Below, piece by piece: positions 5,548 through 61,022 of a stretch of DNA of 64,000 nucleotides. The translations under genes were made by a program, and so were the position numbers. Numbering within the stretch: the stretch's first letter is position 1; each line of letters opens with the position of its first letter. A model generated the notes under the pieces. The model did no database searches, was not told where the DNA came from, and saw only the letters and a list, made by a program, of their open reading frames with translations. The stretch spans positions 10,357 through 74,356 of the forward strand of contig JBMOMX010000035.1 of the NCBI GenBank assembly GCA_049323435.1, read 5' to 3'. The DNA is from Pseudomonadota bacterium. GTDB taxonomy: Bacteria > Pseudomonadota > Alphaproteobacteria > UBA11222.

Positions 5548-5640
5548 GTACCCCCTCCCAACCTCCCCCTTTCAGGGGGAGGAGTCATTCGCCGCAGCGT
5601 CCCCTCCCCTTGGAAAGGGGGGGGGACAGGGAGGGGATCA
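5548..5640. repeat. Compound GC-rich palindromic intergenic element, copy 1
   Basis: Hairpin cctccccctttcagggggagg at 5562-5582 has a 9-bp stem. A second G/C hairpin, cccctcccc...ggaggggatc, follows, and the two are nested inside outer inverted arms. The 21-nt core is identical to the one at 31241-31261. Translation gives the artefactual PFQGEG peptide. Confidence 0.8.
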
Positions 5641-5688: not shown

Positions 5689-6054
5689 CTAGGCGATAGC
5701 CCCAATCAATGCCAGCGCCGACCGCTCGATAATCTTCTCGAGAACGAAGCCCCCGACCAGGCGGGTCGCAATCCTGCCTGTCTCCGAGATCACGTCTGTC
5801 TGCGCCTGCGGCACACCGCCTTCTGGCGTAACGATATTGTGGCCACGCAAATGATCCAGCAGGCCATTATGGCAGATCAGGCGCATATCATAGGTAATCT
5901 TAATGCTGCCGGTAACCGTGCTGGCCTCAACCGTTTTAACACCCTGTAATGCGGAGAGGGTTTCGCACACACGGCCCGCCAACCACTCATCGCGCTTGAT
6001 GGCGTCGCTGCGTACCCTCAGCCGGCCCGGAACATGATGCAGATAATGGACCAC
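5689..6054 (-). CDS. Hypothetical protein with an HMA-like fold lacking CxxC (HxVPGRxRxR motif), paralogue A
   Basis: GTG start with AGGAG 7 nt upstream. It opens VHYLHHVPGRLRVRSD...GVKTVEASTVTGSIKITYD. The predicted b-a-b-b-a-b order matches heavy-metal-associated domains, but Arg residues replace the metal-binding cysteines. The same motif occurs in ORF 6906-7427 and at the N-terminus of the ATPase at 12148. Confidence 0.65.
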   Translation of the reverse strand: MVHYLHHVPGRLRVRSDAIKRDEWLAGRVCETLSALQGVKTVEASTVTGSIKITYDMRLICHNGLLDHLRGHNIVTPEGGVPQAQTDVISETGRIATRLVGGFVLEKIIERSALALIGAIA

Positions 6055-7916: not shown

Positions 7917-9116
7917 CTAATCCCGCAGCGCGGGCACCTTGTCGATGCGTTCCCACGGCAGCCCAATATCCATGCGGCCTATATGACCATATGCCGCAAG
8001 GCGGCTGTAGAAGCGGCCGCGAAACAAAGCCGGCAGGCGGCGCAGATTAAATTCCGCGATTATTCCGGCTGGCCGAAACTCGAATGCGGCCTGCAACCTT
8101 TTTGCGATCTCTTCGTCCGCAATACGGCCCGTGCCAAAAGTCTGCACGCGCAGGCTGACAGGTTGCGCCATGCCGATCGTGTAACTGAGTTGCAACTCGC
8201 ACTCCTCCGCAAGCCCGGCGGCAACGACATTCTTCGCCGCGTAGCGGGCGGCATAGGCGCTAATCCGGTCAATGCGCGATGGGTCCTTACCGCTCAGGGC
8301 CGCGCCGCTGTGGCGTGAATATTCGCCATAAGTGTCAATCGCATTTTTGCGGCCGGTAAGCCCCGCATGCATTTCCGGCCCGCCCGTGAATAGCAGGCCG
8401 CCGGGATTGACGAAAATGCGGGTGGCGTTATCGGGGCGGATTAATTCATCTTCAAAGACCGGCTTGACGGCAAGATCGACGAGGTTTGCCTCCAGCTCCT
8501 TTAACGAAGGGGCGTGCCGGGGATCAACCGCGGCTGTAATGGTAAGGCTGTGGATGCGATGCGGGCGCCGGTTGCGATACTCCACCGCAACCTGAATCTT
8601 GCCGTCAGGGGCGAGATAGCCAAGCTGACGGGTGAGGCGGACGGTTGCGATGCGCCGCGCCAGCTTGTGCGCAAGCCAGACCGGCAGGGGCATCAGCGCA
8701 GCGGTCTGGGTGCAGGCATAGCCGAACTGGGTTACCTGGTTATCGGCGGCAATTGCGTCAATGCCCGCATCGTCCAGCATGGTTTCGTCGATCTCGCGGT
8801 AGGCGCCGCCAACTTCGGTAAGACTGGTCATGATGTGGCAGTTCGCGGCCGTGAACCCGTCTTCGTCATCGCCATTGCCATAGCCCGCACGCCTTATTGC
8901 CTGACGGGCAACCATTGGCGCATCAATCGTGGCGCGCGATGCGAAACGCACGGCAAGGAAGAGGATGCCCTTCGCAACGGCGCATTCGGCGTCAAGCCGG
9001 GAAAACGGGTCGGCAAGCAGATAACTGTCGAGGATCGAATCGCTGATCTGGTCGCACAGCTTGTCCGGATGCCCTTCGGTTACGGATTCGGATGTGAAGA
9101 CAAAATCTTCCATCAT
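7917..9116 (-). CDS. metK: S-adenosylmethionine synthetase, a divergent MetK paralogue
   Basis: The ORF extends to 9305, but the MetK N-terminus MMEDFVFTSESVTEGHPDK begins at 9116, giving 399 aa. The conserved blocks are altered: GGGAFSGKD is replaced by HSGAALSGKD, and DQGxMFGYA by DNQVTQFGYA. The ATGATGG start overlaps the ATPase TGA stop. Confidence 0.85.
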   Translation of the reverse strand: MMEDFVFTSESVTEGHPDKLCDQISDSILDSYLLADPFSRLDAECAVAKGILFLAVRFASRATIDAPMVARQAIRRAGYGNGDDEDGFTAANCHIMTSLTEVGGAYREIDETMLDDAGIDAIAADNQVTQFGYACTQTAALMPLPVWLAHKLARRIATVRLTRQLGYLAPDGKIQVAVEYRNRRPHRIHSLTITAAVDPRHAPSLKELEANLVDLAVKPVFEDELIRPDNATRIFVNPGGLLFTGGPEMHAGLTGRKNAIDTYGEYSRHSGAALSGKDPSRIDRISAYAARYAAKNVVAAGLAEECELQLSYTIGMAQPVSLRVQTFGTGRIADEEIAKRLQAAFEFRPAGIIAEFNLRRLPALFRGRFYSRLAAYGHIGRMDIGLPWERIDKVPALRD

Positions 9117-15582: not shown

Positions 15583-15658
<76 letters not shown>

Positions 15659-33486: not shown

Positions 33487-33571
33487 CGCCGCCCGCGCCG
33501 GAATGGCCTGATCGGATCAATCGGGGACAGTATAAATGCTGTCCCCGATAAGCCGTGCGCCCCGGCCAGTG

Positions 33572-34840
33572 TTAGGCCGGATCAAACATTATGTGCAGTT
33601 CCTTTAACCCGCGCAGAACGATGCTGGGTTCATGGTGCGGGTCGGGATGACCGGGCGCCAGGCGCAGATTTTTCATCCGTGTCAGGATGGTTCTGAACGC
33701 CAAATTCATTTCCTTGCGCGCCAGCATGGCCCCCAGGCAGTGATGCGTGCCCTGGCCAAACGCCACATGGCGGGCCGCGTTTTCACGGCGCACGTCGAAT
33801 TTTTCCGCCCCCTCGAATTGCGCCTCGTCACGATTGGCGCTGGCGAACATCAGCATCACCGCTGCGCCTTTGGGCATGAAGGTTCCGCCCAGCGTCGTGT
33901 CGCGGGTAGTAACCCGGAAAAGACCCTGCACCGGGCCGTCAAAGCGCAGCACTTCCTCGGTCAGGTTCTCCACCAGCGACATATCATCAAGCACCAGTTG
34001 CATTTGATCCGGGTGCTGAAGCAATAGCATCATTCCCTTGGACAGCGAGTTGGTAGTGGTTTCATTACCCGCCGCCAGCAACTGATTGAGCACGGACAAT
34101 AGTTCCGCTGTGCTCATCGGCTCGCCATTTTCCATACGCGCGCGCACCAGATCGGAAATAATGTCATCGGTGGGATTGGCGCGTTTTTCCTCGATCACCC
34201 TGGCGAAATATAGCTGAAACTCCAGCATCAGTTTCGAGGCTGCAATACGCTGTTCCTTGCTGGACACGCCGCTGATCTGCTGGGTCAGCGCATCCGACCA
34301 TTGCTTGAAAATTCCGATATCGCTGCGCGGCACACCAAGCTGATCGGCAATGATAATCATCGGCAGCGGCACGGTGAATTGCGACACGAACTCGCACTTG
34401 CCGTCTTTGATGAATTTGTCAATCAGCTCGTCGACCAGGTTCTGAATATAGGGTTCCAGCTGATTGACGCGCGCCTGGGAAAACACCTTGTTGATCGGGT
34501 TGCGATAGAATTTATGCTTGGGCGGATCCACCGTGATCAGTGTGGGCACAGAAGGATAGCCGCCATAATCTTCAAACCGGGTGCGCATTTCGGGCGGCGC
34601 CATTAAATCAATGACATCGCTGGAAAAAGTCGCGGTGTCCTTGAGCGCCTTCACAACATCCTCATAGCAGGTGACGGTAAAAAACCCGGCAACCGGGTCT
34701 TTATGAACCGGATCTTCTTCCCGCAGTTTTTTGTAGGTGTGATACGGGCATTCGATCACATCCATATCGACCAGCGTGGTCTGCTCCAGTGGCTTTTGCG
34801 CAGCAATGCGGCCCTTTTCTTCAAGTTCCGTCCGGATCAT
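33572..34840 (-). CDS. Cytochrome P450
   Basis: 422 aa with heme loop FGQGTHHCLGAMLA, an ExxR motif and the AGNETT I-helix. Confidence 0.9.
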   Translation of the reverse strand: MIRTELEEKGRIAAQKPLEQTTLVDMDVIECPYHTYKKLREEDPVHKDPVAGFFTVTCYEDVVKALKDTATFSSDVIDLMAPPEMRTRFEDYGGYPSVPTLITVDPPKHKFYRNPINKVFSQARVNQLEPYIQNLVDELIDKFIKDGKCEFVSQFTVPLPMIIIADQLGVPRSDIGIFKQWSDALTQQISGVSSKEQRIAASKLMLEFQLYFARVIEEKRANPTDDIISDLVRARMENGEPMSTAELLSVLNQLLAAGNETTTNSLSKGMMLLLQHPDQMQLVLDDMSLVENLTEEVLRFDGPVQGLFRVTTRDTTLGGTFMPKGAAVMLMFASANRDEAQFEGAEKFDVRRENAARHVAFGQGTHHCLGAMLARKEMNLAFRTILTRMKNLRLAPGHPDPHHEPSIVLRGLKELHIMFDPA

Positions 34841-35121
34841 GGCAAATTCCTCAGTTGGTTGCGGTCTGCAAATGACAGGCCTATCAGGCCCTCATCTACA
34901 ATATTATCAGTAATATGGTTTATTTTTGGTCAAGAGGCAAATTGCTTGTAAGAGATTTACAAAAAAATGCCGTTGCGTCCCTTGCCTTCTGGCTGCCACG
35001 GCGGCAAGACAGGGGGTGAATGACAGGCGCGATAATTCAGGGCACGCCCTGGAATAACAGGCATCCCGGTCCGTTACATACCCAGATCAACTGGCCGTGT
35101 TTTCTCCGGCCAGCCTGATTG

Positions 35122-35745
35122 TTAGTCCGGTTTTTTTGCCTTTAGCGGCAGCAGCCGGAACAGGCTTTCCTGATCAGGCAGGCCAGTGACATTAATTCCA
35201 TTCTTCTTTTGGAATTCGCTCAGGGCCGCATGCATGGCCTTACTGTAATTGCCATCAATTGATCCCTTGTAAAACCCCTGATCCGACAGGCTCTGTTGCA
35301 CCCTTTGCAATGTTTCACGATAAATGGGAACGCCCTTTTCCTTATTGCCAGCCAGTAATTTGTCACTACGGGCGATAATGCGCTGCGGGTGAAGCGCCTG
35401 GATCATATTATTTACAGCAATTTCAAATCGGTCCTCGGGATAAGATGCGCAGTAACGCTCCAGCAGCGCCAGCAGCAGATCGGTTGTCTGCCAGGGCGTC
35501 AGATCGAAAGTATCCGGGCTATTCTTGTTTGCGGCGGACAAATATCCATCCACCCAGCCGGCGAACAGATCTGCGGCCTTGGCGTTTCCCGCCTTGCGGG
35601 AATCGGTAAAGGCCTTGCATGGCGCACCGCCGCCGCCATCAATGGCATAGGCCCCATTACTATCGGCGGCTTTTGCGCGGTCCACCGGCAATGCAGGGCT
35701 CCATGCCAGGCCAAACACAAGAAGCGCCAATATCCTATGCGCCCG
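35122..35745 (-). CDS. Secreted protein with a C-terminal peptidoglycan-binding (PG_binding_1-like) domain
   Basis: Signal peptide MRAHRILALLVFGLAWSPALP. The C-terminal motif is LSDQGFYKGSIDGNYSKAMHAALSEFQKKNGINVTGL. Confidence 0.62.
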   Translation of the reverse strand, partial: RAHRILALLVFGLAWSPALPVDRAKAADSNGAYAIDGGGGAPCKAFTDSRKAGNAKAADLFAGWVDGYLSAANKNSPDTFDLTPWQTTDLLLALLERYCASYPEDRFEIAVNNMIQALHPQRIIARSDKLLAGNKEKGVPIYRETLQRVQQSLSDQGFYKGSIDGNYSKAMHAALSEFQKKNGINVTGLPDQESLFRLLPLKAKKPD

Positions 35746-35837
35746 CATGGCGAATATTCCTATTTCTGATTTGAATAATAAAAACCACCGGCGCATCATT
35801 ATGGCGCGCCGGCGGTTGCTAACGTAAGTGGTGCGCT

Positions 35838-37316
35838 TTAGCCGGCGCGAACCAGCTGCCCGCGTCCCGTCCTCAGACCAAGGATCCCCGCCAGTCCCGT
35901 GCCCAGAAGCAGCAGCATGCCGGGCTCAGGCACAGCGGCGCCATCATCATCCACAAGGATGGCCGTCATCGTCAGGGACAGGGCGCCGCCAGTGAAGTCG
36001 AGGAAAGTTGGGAACGCCGTGGCGAAGCCCGCATCCGCAACGTCAAGTAGTGGCAATATCCCCATCAGATCAAATGTGGTGACATCATCATCGGGGTCGA
36101 AGGAGTAGGATTCACCCGGTAGAATGGTGGCCACGACAATCCCATCAACAATGATGTCGAAGGGCCCGGTAAAGCCGGTCAAGGGCGCCATCACTTCGAG
36201 GAACTCGGCCCCGGGACCGGTCAGCGCATAGGTGAAGCCTTCCGCAAATGGCGGGTCATACCACAGACGGGGTTGTGGCGCGGGGAACTCAAACTGCCCG
36301 GGTGCGGGAACGAATGGCAGTACAGGATTGTCTTCCGTCTCGCCCGGGGCAACACCACCGACGCCGCCAAAGGCAAAGATAAAGGTCGCGGGCGTGCCGT
36401 CAGGGTTGCCTTCGACAGGATCGCCCACGGCAGCAGATGTAAACCCATCGCCGCCGCCGCCGCCAGGGTTGCTTTGCCCCAATGAATACAGATTGACACC
36501 AAGCCCGGCCAGCGCGGCAAGGGCGCTGGCCTCGCTTTCGCGCGAGCCGTAGAAGATGTTGAAGGTGCGGCTTTCCCCGGAGGCAAGATCACCAAAGGCA
36601 AAATCAAACAGAGAGCCATGGTCGTCCGGCCCCAGGTCGATAAAGTCGACGTTTTCCGACGAGGACCCAAAGTCACCTGTCGTGCTCGGACCCGTGAGCG
36701 GGTCGCCACTGGCGAAGCCATCATTGCTGGCATACAACACATTGCCGCCATTGGCCACCAGATTGTCCTCCACGCCCTGATGGGTGACAAATTCATTGAA
36801 AGCAGTGGGCGGCACATCCCAATCCATTACCCGCCGGTAGATGACATTATTCGCTGTCAGATCGCCAGTATTCCGGATCGTGACATTGACCTGGAAAATA
36901 TCGGCCTGCAGCGAGGGGCCAAACAGATGCGTGACCTCGATCGGGGCGCCGGATAGCCTTACCAGGGAGCTGGCGGTGTTGGCGGTTGCACCGAATGTGC
37001 CGCCGGTCAGGCCGCCAAAACCCGCAGCCTGATTAGCGAAACCTGAGGTGGTAATGCTGTCATAGGTGGTCGCAACACCCCAGCCTTCGCAGAAACAACC
37101 CGGAGAAATGGCATCGCCAATCGGGTTGCGGTAAACACCGTAGGTCATGAACCCGCCCGGACCGTTATCGGAAAAGTTCAGCTCGGCTGTATCGTTCACC
37201 CCTAGCGAAGTCGCGCCATAGGTGATGACCGCGCCAGCATAGGCCGGGCCATTTGCTAGAAATAATGCCATCGGCGCTGTCGCGGCGGTGGCCAATAATG
37301 CTCGTCTTAAGCTCAT
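35838..37316 (-). CDS. PEP-CTERM sorting-domain protein (an exosortase substrate), Gly-rich
   Basis: AGGAGA lies before the ATG at 37316. Signal peptide MSLRRALLATAATAPMALFLANGPAYA. The C-terminus VPEPGMLLLLGTGLAGILGLRTGRGQ is a PEP motif, a TM helix and an Arg cluster. Confidence 0.75.
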   Translation of the reverse strand: MSLRRALLATAATAPMALFLANGPAYAGAVITYGATSLGVNDTAELNFSDNGPGGFMTYGVYRNPIGDAISPGCFCEGWGVATTYDSITTSGFANQAAGFGGLTGGTFGATANTASSLVRLSGAPIEVTHLFGPSLQADIFQVNVTIRNTGDLTANNVIYRRVMDWDVPPTAFNEFVTHQGVEDNLVANGGNVLYASNDGFASGDPLTGPSTTGDFGSSSENVDFIDLGPDDHGSLFDFAFGDLASGESRTFNIFYGSRESEASALAALAGLGVNLYSLGQSNPGGGGGDGFTSAAVGDPVEGNPDGTPATFIFAFGGVGGVAPGETEDNPVLPFVPAPGQFEFPAPQPRLWYDPPFAEGFTYALTGPGAEFLEVMAPLTGFTGPFDIIVDGIVVATILPGESYSFDPDDDVTTFDLMGILPLLDVADAGFATAFPTFLDFTGGALSLTMTAILVDDDGAAVPEPGMLLLLGTGLAGILGLRTGRGQLVRAG

Positions 37317-37477
37317 GATATTTCTCCTATTAATAGTTAAGGACGTCCCAAAATGCGGAAGCCAAAGTTTTGATCTGCTTACTTCACCCAAATGCTTGCG
37401 GGTATATTCAAATACTAAGCAATGCCCATGCTAATTATGGGTTTATTAATGGTCAATAATTTGTCTATTCAAAATTT

Positions 37478-37909
37478 GTGACGGCCATCACAAAGCGGGT
37501 GGATTTTTCCCTGCGTGAGACCGCTCTTGCCTTATGGCGCAACAGACAGCAAGATTACCCCGTGAGCGACACCATACCCATACAGATGGCCCGCGTGCAG
37601 CGGGCCCCCGAAAAGGTCTTTTTCGACCGGCAGGAACTGCTGGTAATTCTGCATCTTTATGGCCGCATGGTGCAGGCGGGCGAATGGCGCGATTATGCGA
37701 TTGACGGGTTAAGGGATCGGGCGATTTTCTCGGCCTTCCGGCGCGCAAGTGAAATGCCGGCCTATTGCATCGTCAAACAGCCCGCGCTGGCCGGGCGTCA
37801 GGGCCAGTACGCCATTACCGGCAGCGGCGGCCAAATTCTGAAGCGCGGCCGTGAATTGCCCCAGGTGCTGCGAGTGCTGGAACGCAAACTGTTGAAGCTG
37901 GTGGAATAA
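37478..37909 (+). CDS. Conserved alphaproteobacterial hypothetical protein, possibly DUF2794-like
   Basis: The core LLVILHLYGRMVQAGEWRDYAIDGL resembles DUF2794 as I remember it. The real start may be the Met at 37586. Confidence 0.5.
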   Translation: MTAITKRVDFSLRETALALWRNRQQDYPVSDTIPIQMARVQRAPEKVFFDRQELLVILHLYGRMVQAGEWRDYAIDGLRDRAIFSAFRRASEMPAYCIVKQPALAGRQGQYAITGSGGQILKRGRELPQVLRVLERKLLKLVE

Positions 37910-37948
37910 AAAACCCCGCAGCTTAAGCAAGCTGCGGGGCTTGATTGT
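37910..37948. terminator. Bidirectional rho-independent terminator
   Basis: aaaaaa CCCCGCAGCTT aagc AAGCTGCGGGG cttgattgt lies between two convergent genes. An A-run sits on one side and T-rich sequence on the other. Confidence 0.7.
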
Positions 37949-37961
37949 CTCAGGCCGCAAC

Positions 37962-38681
37962 CTATTCGCGGTTGCCGCCAAACAGGCGCAGCATCATCAG
38001 GAACAGGTTGAGGAAATCCAGATACAGCGTCAGCGCGCCCATGATCGACTTTTTGCCGGCGATCTCATGGCCATCGTCTTCAAGGTAGATTTCCTTGATT
38101 TTCTGCGTGTCATAGGCGGTCAGGCCGGTGAACACCAGCACGCCGATCACCGAAATGGCGAAGTCCAGCGCCGAAGAAGCCAGGAAAATATTCACCACCG
38201 ATGCGATGATAATACCGATCAGCCCCATAAACAGGAACGAGCCAAAGCCGGTCAAATCCCGCTTGGTGGTATAGCCATACAGGCTGACCGCGCCGAACAT
38301 GCCCGCCGTGATAAAGAATACGCGGGTAATGCTGACCCCGGAATAGACATAGAAAATGCCCGACAGCGACAGGCCAACCAGCCCGGCATAGACCCAGAAC
38401 CAGGTTTGCGCGGAACTGAAGCTCATCGCATGAATGCGGGCGCTGAGATAGAGGACAACGCCCAGCGGCGCCAGCATCACCACCCAGATCAGCGGCGATC
38501 CAGCGATGGCGGAATAGATATCGGTGCGATAACCAAGATAAGCGATGATGCCGGTCAGCGCCAAACCCGACGCCATATAATTATAGACCCGCAGCATATA
38601 TTCGCGCAGGCCCTGATCGATGACCTGCGCACGCGCGCCAGTGCCGCCGAGGGCCGTCATATTCCGATCAAAATCAGCCAT
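37962..38681 (-). CDS. Bax inhibitor-1 / YccA family membrane protein
   Basis: 239 aa with seven transmembrane helices and a conserved BI-1 N-terminus (...REYMLRVYNYMASGLALTG). Confidence 0.85.
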   Translation of the reverse strand: MADFDRNMTALGGTGARAQVIDQGLREYMLRVYNYMASGLALTGIIAYLGYRTDIYSAIAGSPLIWVVMLAPLGVVLYLSARIHAMSFSSAQTWFWVYAGLVGLSLSGIFYVYSGVSITRVFFITAGMFGAVSLYGYTTKRDLTGFGSFLFMGLIGIIIASVVNIFLASSALDFAISVIGVLVFTGLTAYDTQKIKEIYLEDDGHEIAGKKSIMGALTLYLDFLNLFLMMLRLFGGNRE

Positions 38682-52381: not shown

Positions 52382-53290
52382 TCACTTTTGCATGGGATGA
52401 AAGATGACATTGATAAATACTTCGTTTACGGGCAGCATATCGGCATGCAGTTGCGGCCCTGTCCTGCCTGCTTCCAGCGCATGACAGCGATAACCTTGAT
52501 CCGCCATCCAGCGCACATAATCGCCCGCGGAAAAACCGGAAATTTTTGGCAGCAGTGAAAAATTCATTTCCGAAAGAATGACCGGGCGTGATTGCGCCAG
52601 CGTAGCGGCCGCGCCGCGCAGCGCCAGGCCTTCGGCGCCTTCAATATCCATCTTGATCACATCCACCTTGCGGCCGGCAACAAGACTGTCCAGCGTTTTC
52701 ACCTCAACTTCCTCGACGCTGAAACCGCTGTCGCGAAATTCCTGCTGCATTTCACTGGTGGGCAGGCTCCAGGTGCCGCCGGGATTGCCCGCATCATTGT
52801 CCCAGCCAATGCTGAATCGTCCGGCTTCAGTCCCCACGGCGCAATGATGCACTTCGGCGCGGTCTGAAAACCCGTTCGCCTCAAACAGCGAGCGCGCGAG
52901 ATAGCGCCCCGTCCGGGCGCGCGGTTCAATAGCAATGACCCGGCCGCCGGGGCCAACCGCGCGCGCGGCCTGCACCGCGAACCAGCCAATATTGGCCCCG
53001 ATATCAACGAATGTGTCCCCTGCCTTCACGCTGTTCAGTATGAAGGCGGTTTCGTCTTTTTCATAATGGCCCGACAGGCAGCCGAGCGAAACGCCGCTAT
53101 CACCCAGATCAATCCATAGCGCCAGCCCGCCGGGCATCTCGAACATCACCCAGCTATCAGGTGCAAAACCCGGCCGCGCCAGGCCCCCCGGAGCGGCCTC
53201 CGGTTGGGATAATGCCCCGCCCAGCCATGAACGGCGCACCAGTTGCGCGTCAAATTTTTTGAGCAGTTTTTCATTCAGCAGCGCAAACAT
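52382..53290 (-). CDS. FkbM family methyltransferase
   Basis: DIGANIGWFAV... is the SAM-binding motif of the FkbM family. The ORF extends to 53434, but 53290 is the likelier start. Confidence 0.72.
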   Translation of the reverse strand: MFALLNEKLLKKFDAQLVRRSWLGGALSQPEAAPGGLARPGFAPDSWVMFEMPGGLALWIDLGDSGVSLGCLSGHYEKDETAFILNSVKAGDTFVDIGANIGWFAVQAARAVGPGGRVIAIEPRARTGRYLARSLFEANGFSDRAEVHHCAVGTEAGRFSIGWDNDAGNPGGTWSLPTSEMQQEFRDSGFSVEEVEVKTLDSLVAGRKVDVIKMDIEGAEGLALRGAAATLAQSRPVILSEMNFSLLPKISGFSAGDYVRWMADQGYRCHALEAGRTGPQLHADMLPVNEVFINVIFHPMQK

Positions 53291-53411
53291 GGAATTAGAC
53301 ACGGGAAATCCTTCTACTAAACCGCCAGGAAAAGAACTGGCCCATCCACCATATAAAGGGCACATTTCAGTGCCGGAATACAGGCTGGCATCGCAACAGA
53401 GAGACCTAATG

Positions 53412-53915
53412 GTTGACAGCCCCAAACGCAACAAGCCAGCGCCGCGCCGCTATGGGCTTCGCCACCTTGCCAGCGCCGCCGACAGTGTGACCCGGCCGGC
53501 ATTTGGACGGCGCGGCTTCGCCCTTGGGGCATTGCTGTCGCAATGGCCGCAGATTGCAGGCGAACGGCTTAGTGAAAATTGTCAGCCCGAAAAACTGCAT
53601 TTCCCGCAGGGCAAGGGCGATGGCGGCACGCTGTGGGTGCGCGCAGATGGCGCCGCCGCATTGGAGTTGCAGCATATGCAGCCCGTTCTGATCGCAAGAA
53701 TCAATACGCTGTGCGGCTTTCGCGCCGTGGCTGCGCTGCGCATTGTGCAGGGGCCCATTCCCGCCCGTATCCGTCAGCCAGACCCGCCCAGACCCCTGCG
53801 TCCAGCGGAAAGCCTGGCCATTGATCAGGAGACCGCCATCATTACGGACCCGGAATTAAAGGCGGCGCTGACCCGGCTTGGGCAGGGTATTTACCGCCGT
53901 AAAAAGCCTTGTTGA
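53412..53915 (+). CDS. dciA: DUF721 / DciA-like protein (replicative helicase loader)
   Basis: The conserved alphaproteobacterial block mutY-DUF721-dsbA-smc is present. The sequence PAFGRRGFALGALLSQWPQIAGERLSENCQPEKL... fits the DUF721 core. Confidence 0.68.
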   Translation, partial: VDSPKRNKPAPRRYGLRHLASAADSVTRPAFGRRGFALGALLSQWPQIAGERLSENCQPEKLHFPQGKGDGGTLWVRADGAAALELQHMQPVLIARINTLCGFRAVAALRIVQGPIPARIRQPDPPRPLRPAESLAIDQETAIITDPELKAALTRLGQGIYRRKKPC

Positions 53916-53967
53916 GTCGGGTCAAAGCACCGTATAGTTCACCAGATATTGTAGTGGGAGGTCCATT

Positions 53968-54621
53968 TTGTTGCAATTAACGCGATATTTTGTAGGTATG
54001 CTCGGCCTTCTGGTGCTGGCGGCAGGGCTTGGCCTTTCCGGCGGCACGCGCCTGATGGCGGCGGAAGAACCGGCGGCAGCAGCGCCGCAAGGCAAGCCCT
54101 TCACCGGTGAAATTGTGCTCGGCAAGGCCGATGCGCCGGTGACGATCATCGAATATGCCTCAATGACCTGCCCGCATTGCGCAGCGTTCCATCTGGAAGT
54201 CCTGCCCGCGTTGAAGGAAAAATATATTGATACCGGCAAGGTCAAGCTGATGTTCCGCGAATTTCCGCTGGATGGGGTGGCGTTGCGGGCCTCCATGATG
54301 GCGCGCTGCGCTGGCGAGGCGAAGGCCTATCCCATGATTGATATATTGTTCAAGCAGCAGAAAATCTGGGCCACTTCTGAAGACCCTATCGGGGCATTAA
54401 GCCGGATCGCAAAACTGGGCGGCATGAGCCAGGGCACTTTTGACGCCTGTCTGGCCGACGAGACACTGATGAAGCAGCTTGTCCAAAGCCGCCAGGAGGG
54501 CGCGGACAAATTCGATATTAAAGGTACGCCCAGCTTTATCATTGATGGCAAGACCTATGACGGGGACACGGAAATCGAAGAGTTTGACGCGATTTTGCAA
54601 CCCTTGCTGAACGGCGCTTAA
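53968..54621 (+). CDS. dsbA: DsbA-family thiol:disulfide oxidoreductase
   Basis: Signal peptide and an active site CPHC in a thioredoxin fold. Confidence 0.82.
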   Translation: MLQLTRYFVGMLGLLVLAAGLGLSGGTRLMAAEEPAAAAPQGKPFTGEIVLGKADAPVTIIEYASMTCPHCAAFHLEVLPALKEKYIDTGKVKLMFREFPLDGVALRASMMARCAGEAKAYPMIDILFKQQKIWATSEDPIGALSRIAKLGGMSQGTFDACLADETLMKQLVQSRQEGADKFDIKGTPSFIIDGKTYDGDTEIEEFDAILQPLLNGA

Positions 54622-54645
54622 CCTAGCAGAGACAGGAACATTCCC

Positions 54646-57600
54646 GTGCGATTTACCCGGCTTCGCCTATCGGGCTTCAAAAGCTTCGTCGAACCAGTGG
54701 AATTGCGAATCGAGCCTGGGCTGACCGGCATTGTCGGCCCCAATGGCTGCGGCAAATCCAATCTGGTAGAGGCGCTGGGCTGGGTCATGGGCGAAGGCTC
54801 GGCCAAGCAGATGCGCGCCAGCGGCATGGATGATGTGATTTTCGCTGGCAGCGCCGGGCGCCCGGCCCGCAATATGGCCGAAGTAGGACTGGTCGTTGAT
54901 AATAGCAGCCGCACCGCCCCGGCCCATCTGAATGACGCTGATCAGCTTGAAATCACCCGGCGCATTGAACGCGAGGCGGGCTCCATCTACCGTATCAATG
55001 GCCGGGATGCGCGCCAGCGCGATGTCGCGCTGCTGTTCGCCGATGCGGCCAGCGGGCCGCGCTCCACCGCGATTGTCCGGCAGGGCCGCGTTGGCGCGCT
55101 GATCAATGCCAAGCCCAAGGAACGCCGCGCCATTCTGGAAGAAGCCGCCGGCATCAGCGGGTTGCATTCACGCCGCCACGAAGCGGAACTGCGTCTGCGC
55201 GCGGCCGAAACCAATTTGACCCGCCTCGATGACATTATGACGCAGCTTGAAACCCAGATCGCCGCGCTGAAACGCCAGGCGCGCCAGGCGTCACGCTATC
55301 GCAATCTGTCGGAACATATCCGCCACGGCGAAGCCCTGCTGTTTCATCTGCGCTGGCAGGAGACCGAACAGGCGGTGTCGCTGGCTGCTGAATTGCTGGA
55401 ACAGGCCGAAGCGCGGGTTGTGGACGCCACCACCGCTGCTGCCGCCGCCGCGACGGCGCAATTGGAGGCCGCCGAAGCCGTGCCGCCGCTGCGCCAGATC
55501 GAAGCCGAGGCCGCCGCTGCGCTGCACCGTCTGTCAGTGGCGCGCGACAGTCTGGAGGCCGAAAGCGCGCGCATCGCGCAACAAACCCAGCGCAGCGAAG
55601 CCAATTTATCGCAGGTCCAGCTCGATCAGTTGCGCGAAGGCGCGCATGTCAGCGACTCGGATCACGCCCTGCAACAGCTTGGTCAGGAACGCCAGGATCT
55701 CGAAGCCGCCGAGGCGGAGCAACATGGCCGGGGCGGCACGCTGCGCGATGAGGTGGCGCACGCCGCTGCCGCGCTGAAAACCAGCGAAGCGGCGCTGGAT
55801 AGTGCCACACGCCGGCTGTCCGATCTGATCGCCCAGCGCGAAAGCCTGAACCGCGAGATAAGCCAGACCCGGCAGCGTTTTGACCGGCTGGTCCAGCAAT
55901 TGACCGCCATCACGCAGGAGCGCACCCGGTTGCAGGCTGAAATGCCCGCTGCTGAATTGACGGCGGAAATGGAACAGCGCACCCTTGAGGCCCGCCAGGC
56001 GGTTGTTGCGGGCCGCGAGGCCGTAAGCCTTGCGGAAATCCGGCGCGAGGAAACCCAGAAGACCGAAGCCGCGCTGCGCGAAATATATCAATCCGCCCGC
56101 ACCGCAACCAGCGGGCTGGCGGCGGAAGAAAAAGCCCTGAGCGAGGTGCTGAATGATCGCGGCGGCGATCTGTGGCCGCCGCTGGTGGATGCGCTGCGTG
56201 TGGCGCCGGGATATGAAACCGCCCTTGGCGCGGCGCTGGGCGATGATCTGGAATATCCCAGCGATGACGCAGCCCCGGTGCATTGGGCGCTGCTGGCGGG
56301 CGATGGCCCATTGCCGCCACTGCCCGCAGGCGCCCAGCCGCTGGACCGCTATGTAACCGGTGCGCCCGCTTTGGCGCGCCGCCTGTCACAGATCGGCGTG
56401 GTGGCTGCATCGGATGGCATTTTTCTGCGTGCGCAGCTTAAACCCGGTCAGCGTCTGGTCAGCCTTGAGGGCGCGCTCTGGCGCTGGGATGGCTTTACCG
56501 CCGCCGCCGATGCGCCCACCGCCGCCGCAAGACGGCTGGAAATGCGCAACCGGCTGGGCGATGTTACGCTGCGCCGTCAACAGGCGGACGCACAATTACA
56601 AAGCGCGCGTGAGGCTTTCGAACAGGCCTCACATGCCGCTGCCACGGCGCGCAGCACTGAGGCGGATAGCCGCCGCTATGTCCGGCAAAAGGAAGAAGCG
56701 CTTTCCCAGATGCTGGATGCGCAGGCGAAAGCCGAACGCGAACTGCTTAACCGCACCGCCCGCCTGGCCGCTCTGGTCGAAGCGCAGGCGCGCATCGAAA
56801 ATGAATGCGCCGAGGCTGACCGGCACAGCCGGGAAACCGCCCAGGCGCGCGATATGCTGGAACCCGAAGAACAGCCCCGTGCCGTGGTGGCGGGCTTGCG
56901 CATCGAGGTTGATCTTGGACGTTCTTTATTGAGCCAGGCGCATGGCGCGCTGGATGCTTTTACGCGCGAGGCCAGTGCGCGTGCGCAGCGCCTTCAGGTC
57001 ATTGCGCGCGATCATGGCGCCTGGGCCACGCGCAAGCAGGCGGCGGCCCAGCAGCTGGAGGTTCTGGCCGCACGCGAAGCCGAGCTGAACACAGAGCTGG
57101 AAAATCTGCGCGCCCAGCCGCATGAAATTGAACAGCGGATGCAATCCCTGCTCAGCGAAATTGCCGGCGCGAGCCAGCGCCGCGATCAGGCGGCAGTCAG
57201 CCTTGCAGAGGCCGAAGCCTTACAGAGTGCACAGGACAAGGCGGCCCGCGCCGCACAAAATCATCTGGGTGAAATGCGCGAGGCGCGGGTGCGGCTCGAA
57301 GCAGCGGCGGGCGCCGCGCTGGAGCGCGCAAAGGATCTGGCGGATCAAATTCAGGAGCGGCTGGAATGCGGGCCGCAAGACTGTCTGCGTCTGGCCAATC
57401 ATGAGGATGGCGCGGCGCTGCCGGACATGGACACGGTCGAGCGCAATCTGGCGCGCTTCAAGCGCGAACGCGAGAATATGGGCGCGGTCAATCTGCGCGC
57501 CGAGGAAGAATCGCGCGAACTGAAGGAACGCCTGGAAGGCATGACCCGTGAACGCGCCGATCTCGAAGCCGCCATCGCGCGCCTGCGCCAGGCGATTGGC

Positions 57601-58104
57601 AGCCTGAACCGCGAAGGCCGCGAACGGCTGCTGAAAGCCTTCACCATCGTCAACGAACATTTCGCGCGCCTGTTCGTGCATTTATTTGGCGGCGGCAATG
57701 CGCGGCTGGAATTGATCGAATCCGACGATCCGCTGGAAGCGGGCCTGGAAATTCTGGCCAGCCCGCCCGGCAAGCGCCTGCAATCCATGGGCCTGATGTC
57801 GGGCGGTGAACAGGCGCTGACGGCGATGGCGCTGATTTTTGCGGTGTTCCTGACCAATCCGTCGCCCTTGTGCGTGCTGGACGAAGTGGACGCGCCGCTC
57901 GATGACGCCAATGTGGAGCGGTTCTGCAATCTGCTTGATGAAATGACCCGCTCGACCGAAACCCGGTTTCTGGTCATCACGCATAATTCCGTCACCATGT
58001 CGCGCATGGACCGCCTGTTCGGCGTCACCATGGCCGAACGCGGCGTCAGCCAGCTTGTCTCCGTCGATCTCGAACGCGCCGAAAAACTCCGCGCCGTGGG
58101 GTGA
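54646..58104 (+). CDS. smc: Chromosome partition protein SMC
   Basis: 1152 aa with an N-terminal Walker A GPNGCGKSN, long coiled coils, a hinge, and the C-terminal signature LSGGEQALTAMAL with Walker B. Confidence 0.93.
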   Translation: MRFTRLRLSGFKSFVEPVELRIEPGLTGIVGPNGCGKSNLVEALGWVMGEGSAKQMRASGMDDVIFAGSAGRPARNMAEVGLVVDNSSRTAPAHLNDADQLEITRRIEREAGSIYRINGRDARQRDVALLFADAASGPRSTAIVRQGRVGALINAKPKERRAILEEAAGISGLHSRRHEAELRLRAAETNLTRLDDIMTQLETQIAALKRQARQASRYRNLSEHIRHGEALLFHLRWQETEQAVSLAAELLEQAEARVVDATTAAAAAATAQLEAAEAVPPLRQIEAEAAAALHRLSVARDSLEAESARIAQQTQRSEANLSQVQLDQLREGAHVSDSDHALQQLGQERQDLEAAEAEQHGRGGTLRDEVAHAAAALKTSEAALDSATRRLSDLIAQRESLNREISQTRQRFDRLVQQLTAITQERTRLQAEMPAAELTAEMEQRTLEARQAVVAGREAVSLAEIRREETQKTEAALREIYQSARTATSGLAAEEKALSEVLNDRGGDLWPPLVDALRVAPGYETALGAALGDDLEYPSDDAAPVHWALLAGDGPLPPLPAGAQPLDRYVTGAPALARRLSQIGVVAASDGIFLRAQLKPGQRLVSLEGALWRWDGFTAAADAPTAAARRLEMRNRLGDVTLRRQQADAQLQSAREAFEQASHAAATARSTEADSRRYVRQKEEALSQMLDAQAKAERELLNRTARLAALVEAQARIENECAEADRHSRETAQARDMLEPEEQPRAVVAGLRIEVDLGRSLLSQAHGALDAFTREASARAQRLQVIARDHGAWATRKQAAAQQLEVLAAREAELNTELENLRAQPHEIEQRMQSLLSEIAGASQRRDQAAVSLAEAEALQSAQDKAARAAQNHLGEMREARVRLEAAAGAALERAKDLADQIQERLECGPQDCLRLANHEDGAALPDMDTVERNLARFKRERENMGAVNLRAEEESRELKERLEGMTRERADLEAAIARLRQAIGSLNREGRERLLKAFTIVNEHFARLFVHLFGGGNARLELIESDDPLEAGLEILASPPGKRLQSMGLMSGGEQALTAMALIFAVFLTNPSPLCVLDEVDAPLDDANVERFCNLLDEMTRSTETRFLVITHNSVTMSRMDRLFGVTMAERGVSQLVSVDLERAEKLRAVG

Positions 58105-58117
58105 GGGTGGGGGAATA

Positions 58118-59482
58118 TTGGCTGATAAATCACAACGCCTGCGTGACCCCATCCATGGCCTGATTATCTTTGATAGAGATAATGAAATTGATATGTTGGC
58201 ATGGCGTCTGATTCAGACACCAGAATTCCAGCGATTGCGCAGGATTAAGCAACTTGGACTTTCGGAGTTCGTCTATCCCGGCGCAACACACACCCGATTC
58301 GCCCATTCCATTGGCGTTTATCACAATGCCCGAAAGCTGATGGGGATTGTGAAGAAATCAAAGGGTGAGGGGTTTGATGAGCGCCGCTCAAAGGTTATTT
58401 TAATTGCGGCTTTGCTACATGATATCGGTCACGGACCATTTAGCCACGCCTTTGAGGTGGCACGTGAAGCAATCGCCAAGATGCGCGGCATCGAGGCTGT
58501 TGAGAGGCATGAAAAATTTACAGCTAAATTGATTCTCGCTGAGGATGGTGATCTTCTCCCAATTTTGAATGCTTTCGATGGGGCTCTTGCCAAAGATATT
58601 GCAAAACTGGTTGTCGCCGATGATCCAACTGATATTTATCATGCGGTAGTTTCAAGCTCTTTTGACGCTGACCGTCTCGACTATCTGGTGCGTGACCGCT
58701 ACATGACAGGTGCGTTAACGGGCTCGGTCGATTATGACTGGTTAATGGATAATCTCGAGACTTACGATTTACATGTCCCACAGGACGACGACCCACCACG
58801 TTTAATGCCTACTTTCGTATTTAAGGCGAAAGGCCGACAGGCGGCAGAGGATTTTCTTCTTGCTCGCTATCGGCTCTATACTCAAGTTTATCTCCATAAA
58901 ACTACCCGTGGTTTCGAAAAATTGATTTCGGCCTTGTTCGAGCATGTCGCCAGCGGCGTGCGTCCCCAAGAGTTAGGTCTTGATCCCACTCACCCACTTG
59001 TGAGATTTTTGTCCCAAGATGGCGAATCACTTCAAGATTATCGTCGGCTTGACGATACAGTGATCTGGGGTGCTGTCGAATGCATGACTCAGTGCCAGGA
59101 TGAGCGCGCTAACAGCCTTGCTAAACGGTTGTGGCATAGACAGAATCTAAAAGTATTAGACCTCTCAGTTGCTTACGGGCATGACGAGGAACAAAGACTC
59201 AATGCTGGAAAGCGGGTTGCTAAGCATGTGAGCAGTCAGCTTGGAAAAACTGTCTTTCAGGACGAACCTCGCTATAACCTTTACTCTCGTTCTGGTGCCG
59301 AGGCTGAAAAGGCTCATAAAATGGTGCGCGTGTTAGAGGGTAGTGGTGGTCAACGTGAGATAACCGAATTTGACGACACGATCATTAGCAAGAGATTAAG
59401 GGAAAACACGACTTTGACCAGATATTACTTCTTTTCTGCGGAAGAATGCCGAGACGCTGAGAAGGCCATGAGGGGGAACTAA
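58118..59482 (+). CDS. HD-domain phosphohydrolase, SAMHD1/COG1078-like (putative dNTP triphosphohydrolase)
   Basis: DPIHGLI...FQRLRRIKQLG...HTRFAHSIGV...LLHDIGHGPFSHAFE, and a C-terminal RYRLYTQVYLHK. Its GC is about 48%, against about 62% in the flanks. TTG at 58118 has GGGGG 6 nt upstream. The ORF reaches back to 58055, inside smc. Confidence 0.8.
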   Translation: MADKSQRLRDPIHGLIIFDRDNEIDMLAWRLIQTPEFQRLRRIKQLGLSEFVYPGATHTRFAHSIGVYHNARKLMGIVKKSKGEGFDERRSKVILIAALLHDIGHGPFSHAFEVAREAIAKMRGIEAVERHEKFTAKLILAEDGDLLPILNAFDGALAKDIAKLVVADDPTDIYHAVVSSSFDADRLDYLVRDRYMTGALTGSVDYDWLMDNLETYDLHVPQDDDPPRLMPTFVFKAKGRQAAEDFLLARYRLYTQVYLHKTTRGFEKLISALFEHVASGVRPQELGLDPTHPLVRFLSQDGESLQDYRRLDDTVIWGAVECMTQCQDERANSLAKRLWHRQNLKVLDLSVAYGHDEEQRLNAGKRVAKHVSSQLGKTVFQDEPRYNLYSRSGAEAEKAHKMVRVLEGSGGQREITEFDDTIISKRLRENTTLTRYYFFSAEECRDAEKAMRGN

Positions 59483-59487
59483 AAGCC

Positions 59488-59997
59488 ATGATAGAGAGCG
59501 AAAAGCTGGTGCACACCGTCCTTCAAGCTGCCGAGGGTGAGATCATTGGACGTATTCGGCTACAGAAGATTTTTTATCTTCTGGAACAGCTTGGTTTGGG
59601 GGGCGGGTTCCGTTTTTCTTACCACAATTTCGGCCCTTACTCCGAGGACCTGACCCATGCGCTTTTACTAGCCCGGATATTGGAAAAGACTATCAAAGAA
59701 GAAAAGGTTTCTAACGGATCGGGTTTTTACAGCATATATTCCGTCGTTAAGAAAGATCTCTCCCTCCCAAAAAAAATCGGCAGTCTTCGGGCGGAGGAAA
59801 TAAAAGAGTATATTAGCCGGATGAAGCAAACATCTTCTGTCGAGATAGAATTAGCTGCCACTATCCATTGGCTACGCAAAAAAGAAAAGGTGGGAGACTG
59901 GCGTTCTGAAATCAAAGCTCGCAAAGCCTCAAAAGCCCAGGACGCGGCAATTAGTAAGGCGGAAGAATTACTCAGGGGGCTTGGCCTGGCTGCATGA
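59488..59997 (+). CDS. Hypothetical protein, possibly Panacea-domain (DUF4065) antitoxin-like
   Basis: 169 aa. The RIRLQKIFYLLEQLGL...FRFSYHNFGPYSEDL pattern resembles Panacea domains (LQKLLYxxQ...GPYSxxL). It lies 5 nt after the HD gene and has the same low GC. Confidence 0.55.
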   Translation: MIESEKLVHTVLQAAEGEIIGRIRLQKIFYLLEQLGLGGGFRFSYHNFGPYSEDLTHALLLARILEKTIKEEKVSNGSGFYSIYSVVKKDLSLPKKIGSLRAEEIKEYISRMKQTSSVEIELAATIHWLRKKEKVGDWRSEIKARKASKAQDAAISKAEELLRGLGLAA

Positions 59998-60149
59998 ACC
60001 TTTCTCCCGTTGATCGCATCAGTACTTGTGGCGATAAAACGAAATCGAGGGAATTAAAAGACTTTACCCTTTAACTCCCTCCAATGAGCGTGCCCGGACG
60101 CGCAGCCTTACCCCAGCGATGTGTAGATCACCCGCAGCAAGGATCGCGC

Positions 60150-60266
60150 GGTCATCGCCGACAGCACCTTCGCCCATGCGGTTCATGACATGGGAAAGGG
60201 TGAGCGCGGTGTCAGCCAGCCTGTCTCGGTTGATCTCGAACGCGCCGGGAAATGCCGTACCGTGAG
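60150..60266 (+). pseudogene. Degenerate duplicate of the smc 3' terminus at the far end of the low-GC insert
   Basis: 60201-60246 matches smc 58036-58081 at 41 of 46 positions. Translated, it gives ...GERGVSQPVSVDLERAGK... against SMC ...AERGVSQLVSVDLERAEK... Confidence 0.6.
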
Positions 60267-60290
60267 ATAAAGCGCGGCATGTATCCGGAT

Positions 60291-60569
60291 TTACAGCGGG
60301 GGGCCTTCAATGCCGGGCGGGGCGGATGGCGGCAGAATGGTTTGGGCGCGCGATTTGCGCTGGCCATTCCAGACGGTAAAACCGCCCAATAATATGCCTG
60401 CAAACATCGCCGCGAAAATCACACCGTAAAGCGGCATGTTGACGCTCAGCCCTTCTGCGGCAGGTGCAATGGGATCAATGCTGAAAACCACCATGCTACG
60501 GTTAGCCACCGCCACCAGACTTGCCAGCAGCAGACAAAAACCAAGCCCGATCATGCGCAGCTGCTTCAT
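60291..60569 (-). CDS. Small two-TM inner-membrane protein, LapA-like (DUF1049)
   Basis: 92 aa with two transmembrane helices. It lies next to ihfB, as in many alphaproteobacteria. Confidence 0.5.
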   Translation of the reverse strand: MKQLRMIGLGFCLLLASLVAVANRSMVVFSIDPIAPAAEGLSVNMPLYGVIFAAMFAGILLGGFTVWNGQRKSRAQTILPPSAPPGIEGPPL

Positions 60570-60728
60570 TATTGGAGCAATTCCCGTTCAGATGCCATCA
60601 TATCCGGTCCGCGCAGTGTCATCACCCGGTTTGTCACTGCCCGCTCTGTCAGGGCAGTCCGGAACCCCGCACACAGCGCGCTGCGCAGGCAGGGATTAAC
60701 CGGACAGACACGAAGGCCGGCACACGGG

Positions 60729-61022
60729 TCAGCTGCCGCTGGCGCCGCCATTAAGCCGCTCGCGCATTTCCTTGCCGGTTTTGAAAAACGGCACGCGCTT
60801 TTCCGCAACCTCGACAGCGCCGCCGGTGCGGGGGTTGCGCCCGGTGCGGGCCGAACGCTGCTTGACCGAAAAAGCGCCAAAGCCGCGCAGCTCCACCCGG
60901 TCACCCCGCGCCAGCGCGCCTGAAATTTCGTCAAAAATCGTATTGACGATGCGCTCGATGTCACGCTGAAACAGATGCGGATTGGCAAGCGACAGTTTCG
61001 CGATCAGTTCGGATTTGATCAT
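60729..61022 (-). CDS. ihfB: Integration host factor subunit beta
   Basis: [11 protein letters not shown]...[12 protein letters not shown]...RTGRNPRTG. The ORF extends to 61070. Confidence 0.9.

Follow-up and report, generated by a model that had tools for sequence, protein, structure and literature searches.

A two-gene insert between duplicated copies of the smc terminus in an alphaproteobacterium: an old islet with a candidate toxin-antitoxin or anti-phage module

Introduction

Islands and prophages can enter the 3′ end of a gene and bring a replacement end with them, as e14 does in icd and as islands do in tRNA and tmRNA genes, and integrase-less derivatives of such islands are known as cis-mobilisable elements (CIMEs). 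Another class, the minimal mobile elements of Neisseria, consists of variable cassettes held between conserved flanks and swapped by homologous recombination. In this work we describe a 2,166-bp islet (measured repeat to repeat) directly behind smc in a 64,000-nt stretch of contig JBMOMX010000035.1, from an alphaproteobacterium of the UBA11222 lineage; this whole stretch is called the window below. Only two genes lie between the repeats, which are copies of the smc terminus: one for an HD phosphohydrolase, the other for a small protein resembling the C-terminal domain of the antitoxin DarG.

With the islands of gene 3′ ends the insert shares a foreign block at the end of an intact gene, direct repeats made of that gene's 3′ end and a displaced pseudo-terminus at the far side. 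It differs from them in having neither an integrase nor a recognisable att core or conserved ends, in its size (2.2 kb, two genes), in its target, smc, in being old and fixed rather than strain-variable, and in repeat copies that are only 80-83% identical. With minimal mobile elements it has in common that different small cassettes stand behind the same conserved gene in related lineages and that no dedicated recombinase is present; here, however, only the left flank (dciA-dsbA-smc) is conserved, the right flank being different in every lineage, and the classical elements create no duplication of their flanks. As an islet it is ordinary in kind.

As to the cargo, single-gene anti-phage dGTPases were reportedly described by Tal et al. 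in 2022. In Clover, the deoxynucleoside triphosphate hydrolase (dNTPase) CloA is lethal without its operon partner, the nucleotidyltransferase CloB, and protective with it (PMC12265719). By analogy, the cargo of the islet may share with both an HD-family dNTPase as effector and nucleotide depletion as the principle of defence, and with Clover a partner that restrains a toxic enzyme; CloB, however, makes an inhibitory nucleotide as a nucleotidyltransferase, which the small protein is not, and the anti-phage dGTPases belong to the Dgt branch, whereas the HD protein of the window falls in the EF1143/SAMHD1 branch. EF1143 and SAMHD1 are its closest solved relatives, with metal-binding and catalytic motifs kept, and they are stand-alone enzymes under nucleotide allostery, unlike the HD gene here, which has a conserved partner gene directly downstream.

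As to that partner, Panacea antitoxins neutralise dozens of unrelated toxins, and roughly one PanAT locus in four has the toxin gene first (Kurata et al. 2022, PMC8832971); according to a 2026 paper, the C-terminal domain of DarG has homologues in the DUF4065/Panacea proteins (PMC13621843). The pair in the islet resembles PanAT in a tight operon conserved across genera, in a partner of the DarG-C-terminal/Panacea fold superfamily and in its order, the toxin-first arrangement being one that occurs there, but it is not a member, since no protein of the small-protein family reaches PF13274. With DarTG (PDB 7YK3) it shares the DarG C-terminal toxin-binding fold, seen in the small protein, and it differs in having no DarT (no PADLOC match) and no macrodomain, the partner enzyme being an HD phosphohydrolase. 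The pair resembles PanAT and Clover and is a member of neither, nor of DarTG or the anti-phage dGTPases.

Taken jointly, the observations reported here are best explained, with a probability of roughly 0.6, by an old, recombinase-less islet that arose through recombination in the smc tail and whose cargo is a toxin-first, type-II-like module of toxin-antitoxin or abortive-infection type acting by nucleotide depletion. Judged from sequence, the pair probably represents an undescribed toxin-antitoxin or anti-phage module.

Results

The 3′ end of smc is present twice. Positions 58036-58098 and 60202-60264 are identical at 52 of 63 nt (83%), with a local alignment score of 71 against 18.9 ± 2.5 in 500 shuffles (maximum 34), i.e., about 20 standard deviations above them, and the similarity runs on past the stop codon to give 55 identical nucleotides out of 69 (80%) between 58036-58104 and 60202-60270. 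The original prediction, which had counted 41 of 46 identical nucleotides in a still translatable repeat, was essentially right: 40 of 45 are identical over 60202-60246, the similarity survives alignment statistics and the translation given for the right copy is correct, the true length (63-69 nt) having been understated. The left copy is the functional smc terminus, ERGVSQLVSVDLERAEKLRAVG, which is 87-91% identical in nucleotides to that of six relatives; its amino acid sequence is the same in all of them (6/6), and the 22-residue tail is 100% identical among the six. The right copy, still in frame (GERGVSQPVSVDLERAGKCRTVR up to the stop), reads ERGVSQPVSVDLERAGKCRTVR, with five amino acid replacements in the 22-residue tail and a different stop codon. 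It shares 80% of its nucleotides with the left copy of the window and 72-77% with the relatives, and being nearer to the former than to any of the latter, it is a displaced, decaying smc pseudo-terminus from this lineage.

The smc gene itself is intact and keeps the consensus tail of its clade, so that the arrangement is one of target-gene 3′-end repeats around an undamaged target. Of the earlier idea that an element integrated into the smc 3′ end, brought a replacement terminus and left the displaced original behind, the intact smc and the decayed right copy are upheld, and the incoming replacement terminus is not, as the sequence does not tell which copy came in. Two further candidates were considered and rejected. 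A longer decayed smc pseudogene left of 60202 is not there: the 60020-60201 segment scores 11 against smc, with 11.7 ± 1.8 in shuffles, and as it is not smc-like, the duplication is a discrete block and not the tail of something longer. An imported smc 3′ end would be the other, and the sliding identity of smc to five relatives shows no discontinuity or breakpoint.

The DNA between the repeats is deviant in G+C content (GC). In 300-nt windows GC is 0.60-0.68 along smc and 0.45-0.49 between about 58150 and 60100, dropping from about 0.65 in smc to 0.48 just past its stop, with an onset at most about 15 nt from the stop codon (58102-58104). The 2-kb windows of the 64 kb average 0.590 (sd 0.031) and reach their lowest value, 0.488, at 58001 (z = -3.3), the position of the insert, and the insert has a GC of 0.477 against 0.610 in its flanks, a deviation of the kind by which islands are recognised. 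A drop at the smc stop had been predicted and is borne out by these windows; a return to ancestral sequence at the repeat had been predicted too and fails for GC, which recovers at about 60085, roughly 115 nt ahead of the repeat. The second-lowest GC region of the window is 33501-38000 (0.535-0.539 in 2-kb windows). No integrase or other recombinase is encoded in the insert, which has its two genes only, and no tRNA gene lies near it, the nearest in the window being at 15583 and 18517, both as originally noted.

The HD gene starts 13 nt past the smc stop. Its product matches Pfam HD (4.5e-11) and HD_assoc_2, the structures of Enterococcus faecalis EF1143 (PDB 2o6i/3irh/4lrl) with E = 2e-44 over 340 residues (7-345 of the query), and SAMHD1 with E of about 1e-21. 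The stretches RFAHSIGV, LLHDIGHGPFSH and DADRLDYLVRD are in register with the EF1143 motifs and the catalytic H, HD and D are kept, so that the protein has both the H/HD/D residues and the homology along its whole length that mark the EF1143/SAMHD1 type. An identity as Dgt-type anti-phage dGTPase was rejected, no full-length model match being found: for the NCBIfam model NF041026 (anti-phage dGTPase) the score is 23.4 bits, the cut-off being 400, for TIGR01353 it is 36 bits with a cut-off of 152, and the dGTPase match in PADLOC is confined to residues 28-119, i.e., the HD motif region. Scores this far below the cut-offs place the protein outside the Dgt branch and in the EF1143/SAMHD1 branch, as an HD phosphohydrolase of that family and a putative dNTP triphosphohydrolase.

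The small gene begins 5 nt downstream of the HD gene. Its protein belongs to no Pfam family, Pfam gave only noise on 43 homologues, and PHROGs gave no match. By four independent lines of evidence it is related to the domain at the C-terminus of DarG that binds the toxin. The PADLOC DarG model is matched over positions 165-319 of 329 (E = 4e-13) and NCBIfam antitoxin_DarG over positions 183-311 of 338 (E = 4.6e-10); the profile of the small-protein family finds PDB 7yk3_B with E = 1.5e-3; and the sole structural relative of the small protein over its whole length is this domain of an antitoxin, the DarG C-terminal toxin-binding fold being present in it. One UniRef homologue (P0208) carries the name 'Antitoxin SocA-like Panacea domain-containing protein'. 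Its N-terminal half is a winged helix, as in many transcription factors, and its JGI family bears the name 'YwgA', after the B. subtilis protein.

Homologous pairs occur across the Alphaproteobacteria and on at least one viral contig, and in 10 out of 10 non-conspecific loci the HD gene is followed by the small gene, down to identities of 43% and 37% (on the viral contig). A two-gene locus with a gap of at most 100 nt (5 nt in the window), conserved across species, is also what characterises PanAT-type loci. No model of the pairing as a system is contained in PADLOC 2.0, and no Pfam or NCBIfam family is assigned to it in the 2023-2026 libraries; the PanAT survey names no HD/SAMHD1-like toxin partner, either in its main text or in those parts of the supplements that can be searched (PMC8832971). 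In all eight genomes measured the module lies 8-17 GC points below the flanks of its host, which makes the low GC a standing property of the mobile pair that tells nothing on its time of arrival.

The surroundings of the pair vary. In locus L098 it stands between a type I restriction-modification (R-M) methylase gene and the 3′ end of a tRNA-Arg gene, with 32 nt from the small-gene stop to the tRNA; in Aureimonas its neighbour is a prophage-like block, in Agrobacterium rosae it is enclosed by core genes, and in Hoeflea an IS200-type transposase gene is nearby. An independent copy in a Sphingomonadales metagenome-assembled genome (L095), with an HD gene 76% identical to that of the window, stands beside the 3′ end of a tRNA-Ser gene and is bracketed by an imperfect direct repeat at 5501-5605 and 8270-8373, 2768 nt apart (85% identical over 72 nt without gaps, about 82% over about 104 nt with gaps), whose sequence is unrelated to the smc tail and whose right copy is separated by 136 nt from the 3′ end of tRNA-Ser(gct) (8509-8601). 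The 2873-nt contig L096, in which the L095 repeat occurs close to either end, was considered as a circular form and rejected, as it is identical to the chromosomal segment and is not a circle. The 600-nt non-coding leader upstream of the HD gene in L095 holds about seven iterated copies of CTGTCACCG(A/T)TTAAC (L095:5635-5710 and 5916-5957), which are iteron-like or arm-site-like; nothing comparable is seen in the window copy. On the viral contig, three 28-nt units ending in GTGGATTGAAA follow directly after the small gene, 65-66 nt apart and each with a short palindrome of its own (L102:4559-4717), and could be CRISPR-like or REP-like.

All ten conspecific contigs spanning the site carry the insert, which is fixed in the species. 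Outside it, four loci from groundwater metagenomes (L091-L094), with smc 85% identical in nucleotides and 89.5% in amino acids to that of the window, are collinear with the window through dciA, dsbA, smc, the HD gene and the small gene to 60019, i.e., to 22 nt beyond the small gene, where collinearity ends and atpI-atpB follow. The tight smc-HD junction is common to the two lineages, between which nucleotide identity is 80% for the HD gene and 78% for the small gene, with 85% for smc, 79% for dsbA and 75% for dciA. Of the two features of a relative that the original prediction took to speak against an integration, the same genes at the site and native GC, only the first is seen: the same genes stand at the same junction in L091-L094, but with a cargo GC of 0.48 (GC at third codon positions 0.46-0.51, against 0.70 in smc). 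In three of the four, L092-L094 (L092:6582-8000), the HD gene lacks a start codon where one is conserved and is interrupted by an in-frame stop (…DEPR*NLYS…), the small gene being intact; L091 has an intact HD gene of 455 amino acids (aa) and the same small protein (P0123) as the other three. Loss of the HD gene beside an intact partner is the order of decay that would be expected if the toxin is the costly partner.

The third-position identity between the smc genes of the window and L092 is 0.70, and the remnant differs from the functional copy at 14 of 69 nt (20%), about 24% being expected for neutral decay since the split from L091-L094. As the cargo has diverged like the core genes and the remnant has decayed about as neutrality would have it, the insertion is about as old as that split; the insert is old and not recent, and its GC has not been ameliorated. 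The smc gene of the window is 85-87% identical in nucleotides and about 89% in amino acids to those of L001-L003 and L092. The genomes closest by the C-terminus of SMC (L001-L004 and L026; 94-95% amino acid identity there, 81-87% nucleotide identity over smc) match the window only to 58107 and have within 5 kb neither the gene pair nor lapA and ihfB, the genes to the right of the insert; in L001-L004 the search for a second smc terminus downstream of smc gave scores at noise level.

In about 40 more distant alphaproteobacterial loci smc is followed, some 550 nt on, by atpB-atpE-atpF-atpF′, with no insert; this arrangement is the ancestral, insert-free state. The order dciA-dsbA-smc and then the atp (F0) operon is widely conserved in Alphaproteobacteria (loci L005-L075; 53259-58104 in the window). 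The species of the window has lost the linkage, with no atp genes anywhere in the 64 kb, and since smc originally had the atp operon next to it, the lapA flank goes back to a further rearrangement or to a prior state specific to the lineage. Among the close relatives, whose contigs (L001-L004) end within a few kb downstream of smc, the gene is followed in L003 (5874-8217) by an HTH gene, a YafQ/RelB toxin-antitoxin pair, an unknown open reading frame (ORF) and a HigA-like HTH gene, in L002 (5872-7956) by RHH and HTH genes and an unknown 381-aa ORF, in L001 (5836-7959) by three unknown ORFs of 42-45% GC, and in L004 by DUF1329 and amidohydrolase genes. This variety of small modules behind smc makes the site a hotspot.

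On the other side of the insert, lapA is the native right flank, convergent with smc, and the exact IhfB protein is found on 23 contigs. LapA has a single non-identical match, on the 1.2-kb contigs of a sister lineage (L100/L101; lapA 87% and ihfB 90% identical in nucleotides), where homology runs from the lapA stop into the last 20 nt or so of the remnant and breaks at about position 60247 of the window. Beyond the break (L100:1112-1222 and L101:1062-1164, minus strand), about 80 nt past the lapA stop, lies the C-terminus of an rve-type (IS3/IS481-like) transposase (rve_3, E = 1.6e-5), inside which both contigs end. As the end of the remnant is recognisable beside lapA in this lineage too, the remnant has adjoined lapA for some time, and insertion-sequence (IS) activity has affected the junction. 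Two histories may account for these flanks. In one of them, a single ancient insertion took place behind smc, after which L091-L094 lost the spacer and the remnant and the flank was rearranged in the lineage of the window; in the other, smc already abutted lapA when integration took place, and the incoming DNA was that of a relative in which smc, the HD gene and the small gene already stood in a row. The left junction common to the window and L091-L094 favors the former, whilst the mere 20 nt between the stop codons of the remnant and lapA favor the latter.

The features of the locus are collected in Table 1. Matches of the 182-nt spacer (60020-60201) in blast are conspecific only, and it contains no recognisable coding remnant or recombinase fragment and no Rfam match; nor did Rfam match anything over 57900-60700 at E ≤ 1. 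Promoter and terminator scans of the region stay at shuffle expectation, and the fold of 59990-60295 is not unusually stable (z = -1.2). The hairpin at 60047-60081 is also visible in the fold of the region; if it is a real terminator, the 3′ untranslated region (UTR) of lapA would take in the smc remnant.

Table 1. Coordinates of the features at the smc-lapA locus, numbered from the first letter of the window
Feature	Position	Strand	Description and basis
smc	54646..58104	+	Intact, 1152 aa; target gene, last 69 nt form the left repeat; ORF list, Pfam SMC_N on the identical gene in conspecific contigs
Left direct-repeat copy	58036..58104	+	smc terminus ERGVSQLVSVDLERAEKLRAVG and stop; repeat alignment, tail comparison
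HD gene	58118..59482	+	TTG start, 454 aa; Pfam and PDB homology, 454-aa gene call in conspecific contigs
Small partner gene	59488..59997	+	169 aa; N-terminal winged helix and helical domain; stand-alone homologue of the DarG C-terminal domain
Short trailer	59998..60019	+	Homologous to L091-L094; blastn of window 53001-60019 to L092 ends at 60019
Spacer, 182 nt	60020..60201	.	AT-rich to about 60085, then GC-rich; not smc-like
Hairpin, 16 pairs and T-rich tail	60047..60081	-	Resembles an intrinsic terminator for the lapA-side transcript; weak call, number of sites equal to shuffle expectation
Right direct-repeat copy	60202..60270	+	Decayed smc terminus ERGVSQPVSVDLERAGKCRTVR and stop; TAA 20 nt from the lapA stop
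lapA-like small membrane protein gene	60291..60569	-	92 or 87 aa; Pfam LapA_dom E = 0.0014, below the curated cut-off; gene calls
ihfB	60729..61022	-	97 aa, true start an internal ATG; Pfam Bac_DNA_binding 6.5e-30; core-gene flank, with sppA and rpsA next

Discussion

The structure of the locus is observed directly, and for the mechanism behind it we would propose the following. Foreign DNA carrying a stretch similar to the smc terminus, the two-gene operon and a short trailer would have recombined within the last 69 nt or so of smc, leaving smc intact with a functional tail and pushing the second copy of the tail downstream, where it would later have decayed. The exchange could have been a single Campbell-type event of the host, taking in a circular intermediate through short homology, or a site-specific recombination by an integrase acting in trans or lost later. 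Of the original view of the insert as a decayed or minimal island, what remains is one option among two, as a cassette free of integrase and recombining through short homology is equally compatible with the sequence.

For the cargo, the likeness of the small protein to DarG suggests that it may restrain a toxic dNTPase. Without such restraint the HD enzyme would drain the dNTP pools and halt DNA replication; the 169-aa partner would bind it and keep it off, and may regulate its own operon through the winged helix; and the enzyme would be set free on phage infection or when the partner is lost.

Several results weigh against this combined interpretation. On the side of the insertion, no recombinase, att-like conserved element ends or excision product was seen, the 16-nt longest block of perfect match between the two smc-tail copies is short for RecA-dependent exchange, and the 182-nt spacer finds no explanation in the integration model. 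No second smc terminus is present downstream of the module in L091-L093, the scores being at noise level; flanking repeats are lacking at five other sites of the module, L091-L094 among them; and the L095 copy is not significantly similar to that of the window in its trailer and non-coding ends. Among 80 genome loci and 23 conspecific contigs there was no empty smc-lapA site of the kind that the original prediction expected in close relatives, nor did a metagenome scan for patterns at the lapA junction reveal one, smc having ancestrally had the atp operon behind it; we infer, rather than see, the state of the window's lineage before the insertion. On the side of the cargo, not one of 43 members of the small-protein family matches PF13274 (DUF4065), even at E ≤ 1, the NCBIfam DarG score of the small protein is 39 bits against a curated cut-off of 250, and no paper describing the pairing was found in open-access text for YwgA, YwfO, Panacea with HD or bacterial SAMHD1 defence.

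To these should be added what speaks for another function altogether. The pair could be an accessory housekeeping enzyme of the dNTP pool with a regulatory or DNA-binding subunit, like YwfO and YwgA of B. subtilis, which is the chief rival on the side of function, though we consider it rather unlikely. The JGI name of the small-protein family and the transcription-factor-like winged helix of its N-terminal half would fit such a role; YwfO-like HD enzymes have been discussed as nucleotide sanitisers, one of them being kept in a minimal Mycoplasma genome (PMC4993169); EF1143 and Dgt-type dNTPases are reported to have housekeeping roles (PMC12186491); and in Hoeflea poritis (L105:10007-13753) the pair is the convergent neighbour of a class II (B12-dependent) ribonucleotide reductase gene, which may point to a housekeeping link. 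A housekeeping pair, however, would hardly be so patchy even among congeners (it is absent after smc in L001-L004), so persistently foreign in GC, or so often found at island hotspots and beside R-M or prophage genes. Furthermore, one lineage has lost the enzyme and kept the partner, and the only structural relative of the partner over its whole length is the domain by which an antitoxin binds its toxin.

The way in which the cargo came to stand behind smc can also be read differently. A conventional island or prophage encoding an integrase could have entered the smc 3′ end recently and site-specifically, with an attP that supplied the replacement terminus, and then have been deleted down to two genes. 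Direct repeats of the target-gene 3′ end bracketing a low-GC block are what such an element leaves, and related copies of the module do lie at tRNA 3′ ends, the classic targets of integrases, in L098 with R-M genes at its side as in a larger island; the CTGTCACCG(A/T)TTAAC motifs in the L095 leader could even be arm-type sites. Nevertheless, an insert that is fixed in the species and common to L091-L094 with core-like divergence is not recent, and its low GC, intrinsic to the module, is no mark of recent arrival. The HD gene stands 13 nt past the smc stop, where the integrase gene usually sits, L091-L094 having the same tight junction, and no fragment of a recombinase is found in 60020-60201 or after smc in any relative. 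All this makes a recent island of the conventional type unlikely.

It is also improbable, in our judgement, that no att-type integration took place at all, the pair having been inherited vertically behind smc and the 63-nt block being a by-product of a (possibly IS-mediated) rearrangement that exchanged the atp flank for lapA-ihfB. That atp is the ancestral neighbour of smc and still stands behind the module in L091-L094, that the downstream flank is different in every close relative, that an rve-type transposase abuts lapA in L100/L101 exactly where the homology of the remnant breaks, and that L091-L093 have no remnant would all follow from such a history. By itself, however, a rearrangement yields no clean copy of exactly the last 69 nt of smc, oriented like smc and separated by 20 nt from the stop of lapA. 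Had smc once abutted lapA, one would expect the remnant to be tied to lapA, as it is in two lineages, and the independent L095 copy is bracketed by repeats as well, suggesting that repeats go with insertion of the module. Finally, that the repeat is a chance similarity or the locus mis-assembled is of negligible probability, since apart from the shortness of the repeat nothing speaks for it, and against it stand a score about 20 standard deviations above shuffles, the preserved reading frame and stop position, and the identical structure, at 99.3-99.7% identity, of ten independent conspecific contigs from varied samples and assemblers.

The interpretation as an old islet without recombinase, carrying a nucleotide-depleting module, has implications beyond this locus. 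An insertion that dates back to a species split can still show persistently low GC and a duplicated gene terminus, which makes the two an unreliable sign of recent transfer. The pairing links SAMHD1-like nucleotide depletion in bacteria to the toxin-binding antitoxin domains of DarG and Panacea. If the partner does gate the dNTPase by direct binding, it would be a second, protein-based answer to the problem that Clover solves, that of silencing a toxic dNTPase until infection, and the pair would offer a simple two-gene system for studying regulation of the SAMHD1 type. The repeat-bracketed architecture at two unrelated sites hints at cassettes that move without a recombinase of their own. It is tempting to go further and to speculate that a widespread new toxin-antitoxin or anti-phage system is at hand, in which a protein of the Panacea superfamily directly gates a SAMHD1-like enzyme, and that it travels as an integrase-free cassette inserting through short conserved stretches of the host (the smc tail here, a site near tRNA-Ser in L095), each insertion duplicating the stretch and leaving the unit able to excise again; as a whole this is quite doubtful at present.

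A second strain-variable spot lies just beyond the right end of the window. One conspecific contig (L081:502-2320) has there a gene for a large serine recombinase (Resolvase and Zn_ribbon_recom, 525 aa) and a DUF6362 gene, upstream of FYDLN_acid-aroA-cmk-rpsA, whilst in other conspecific contigs the position is taken by CzcB/OEP efflux genes or amidohydrolases.

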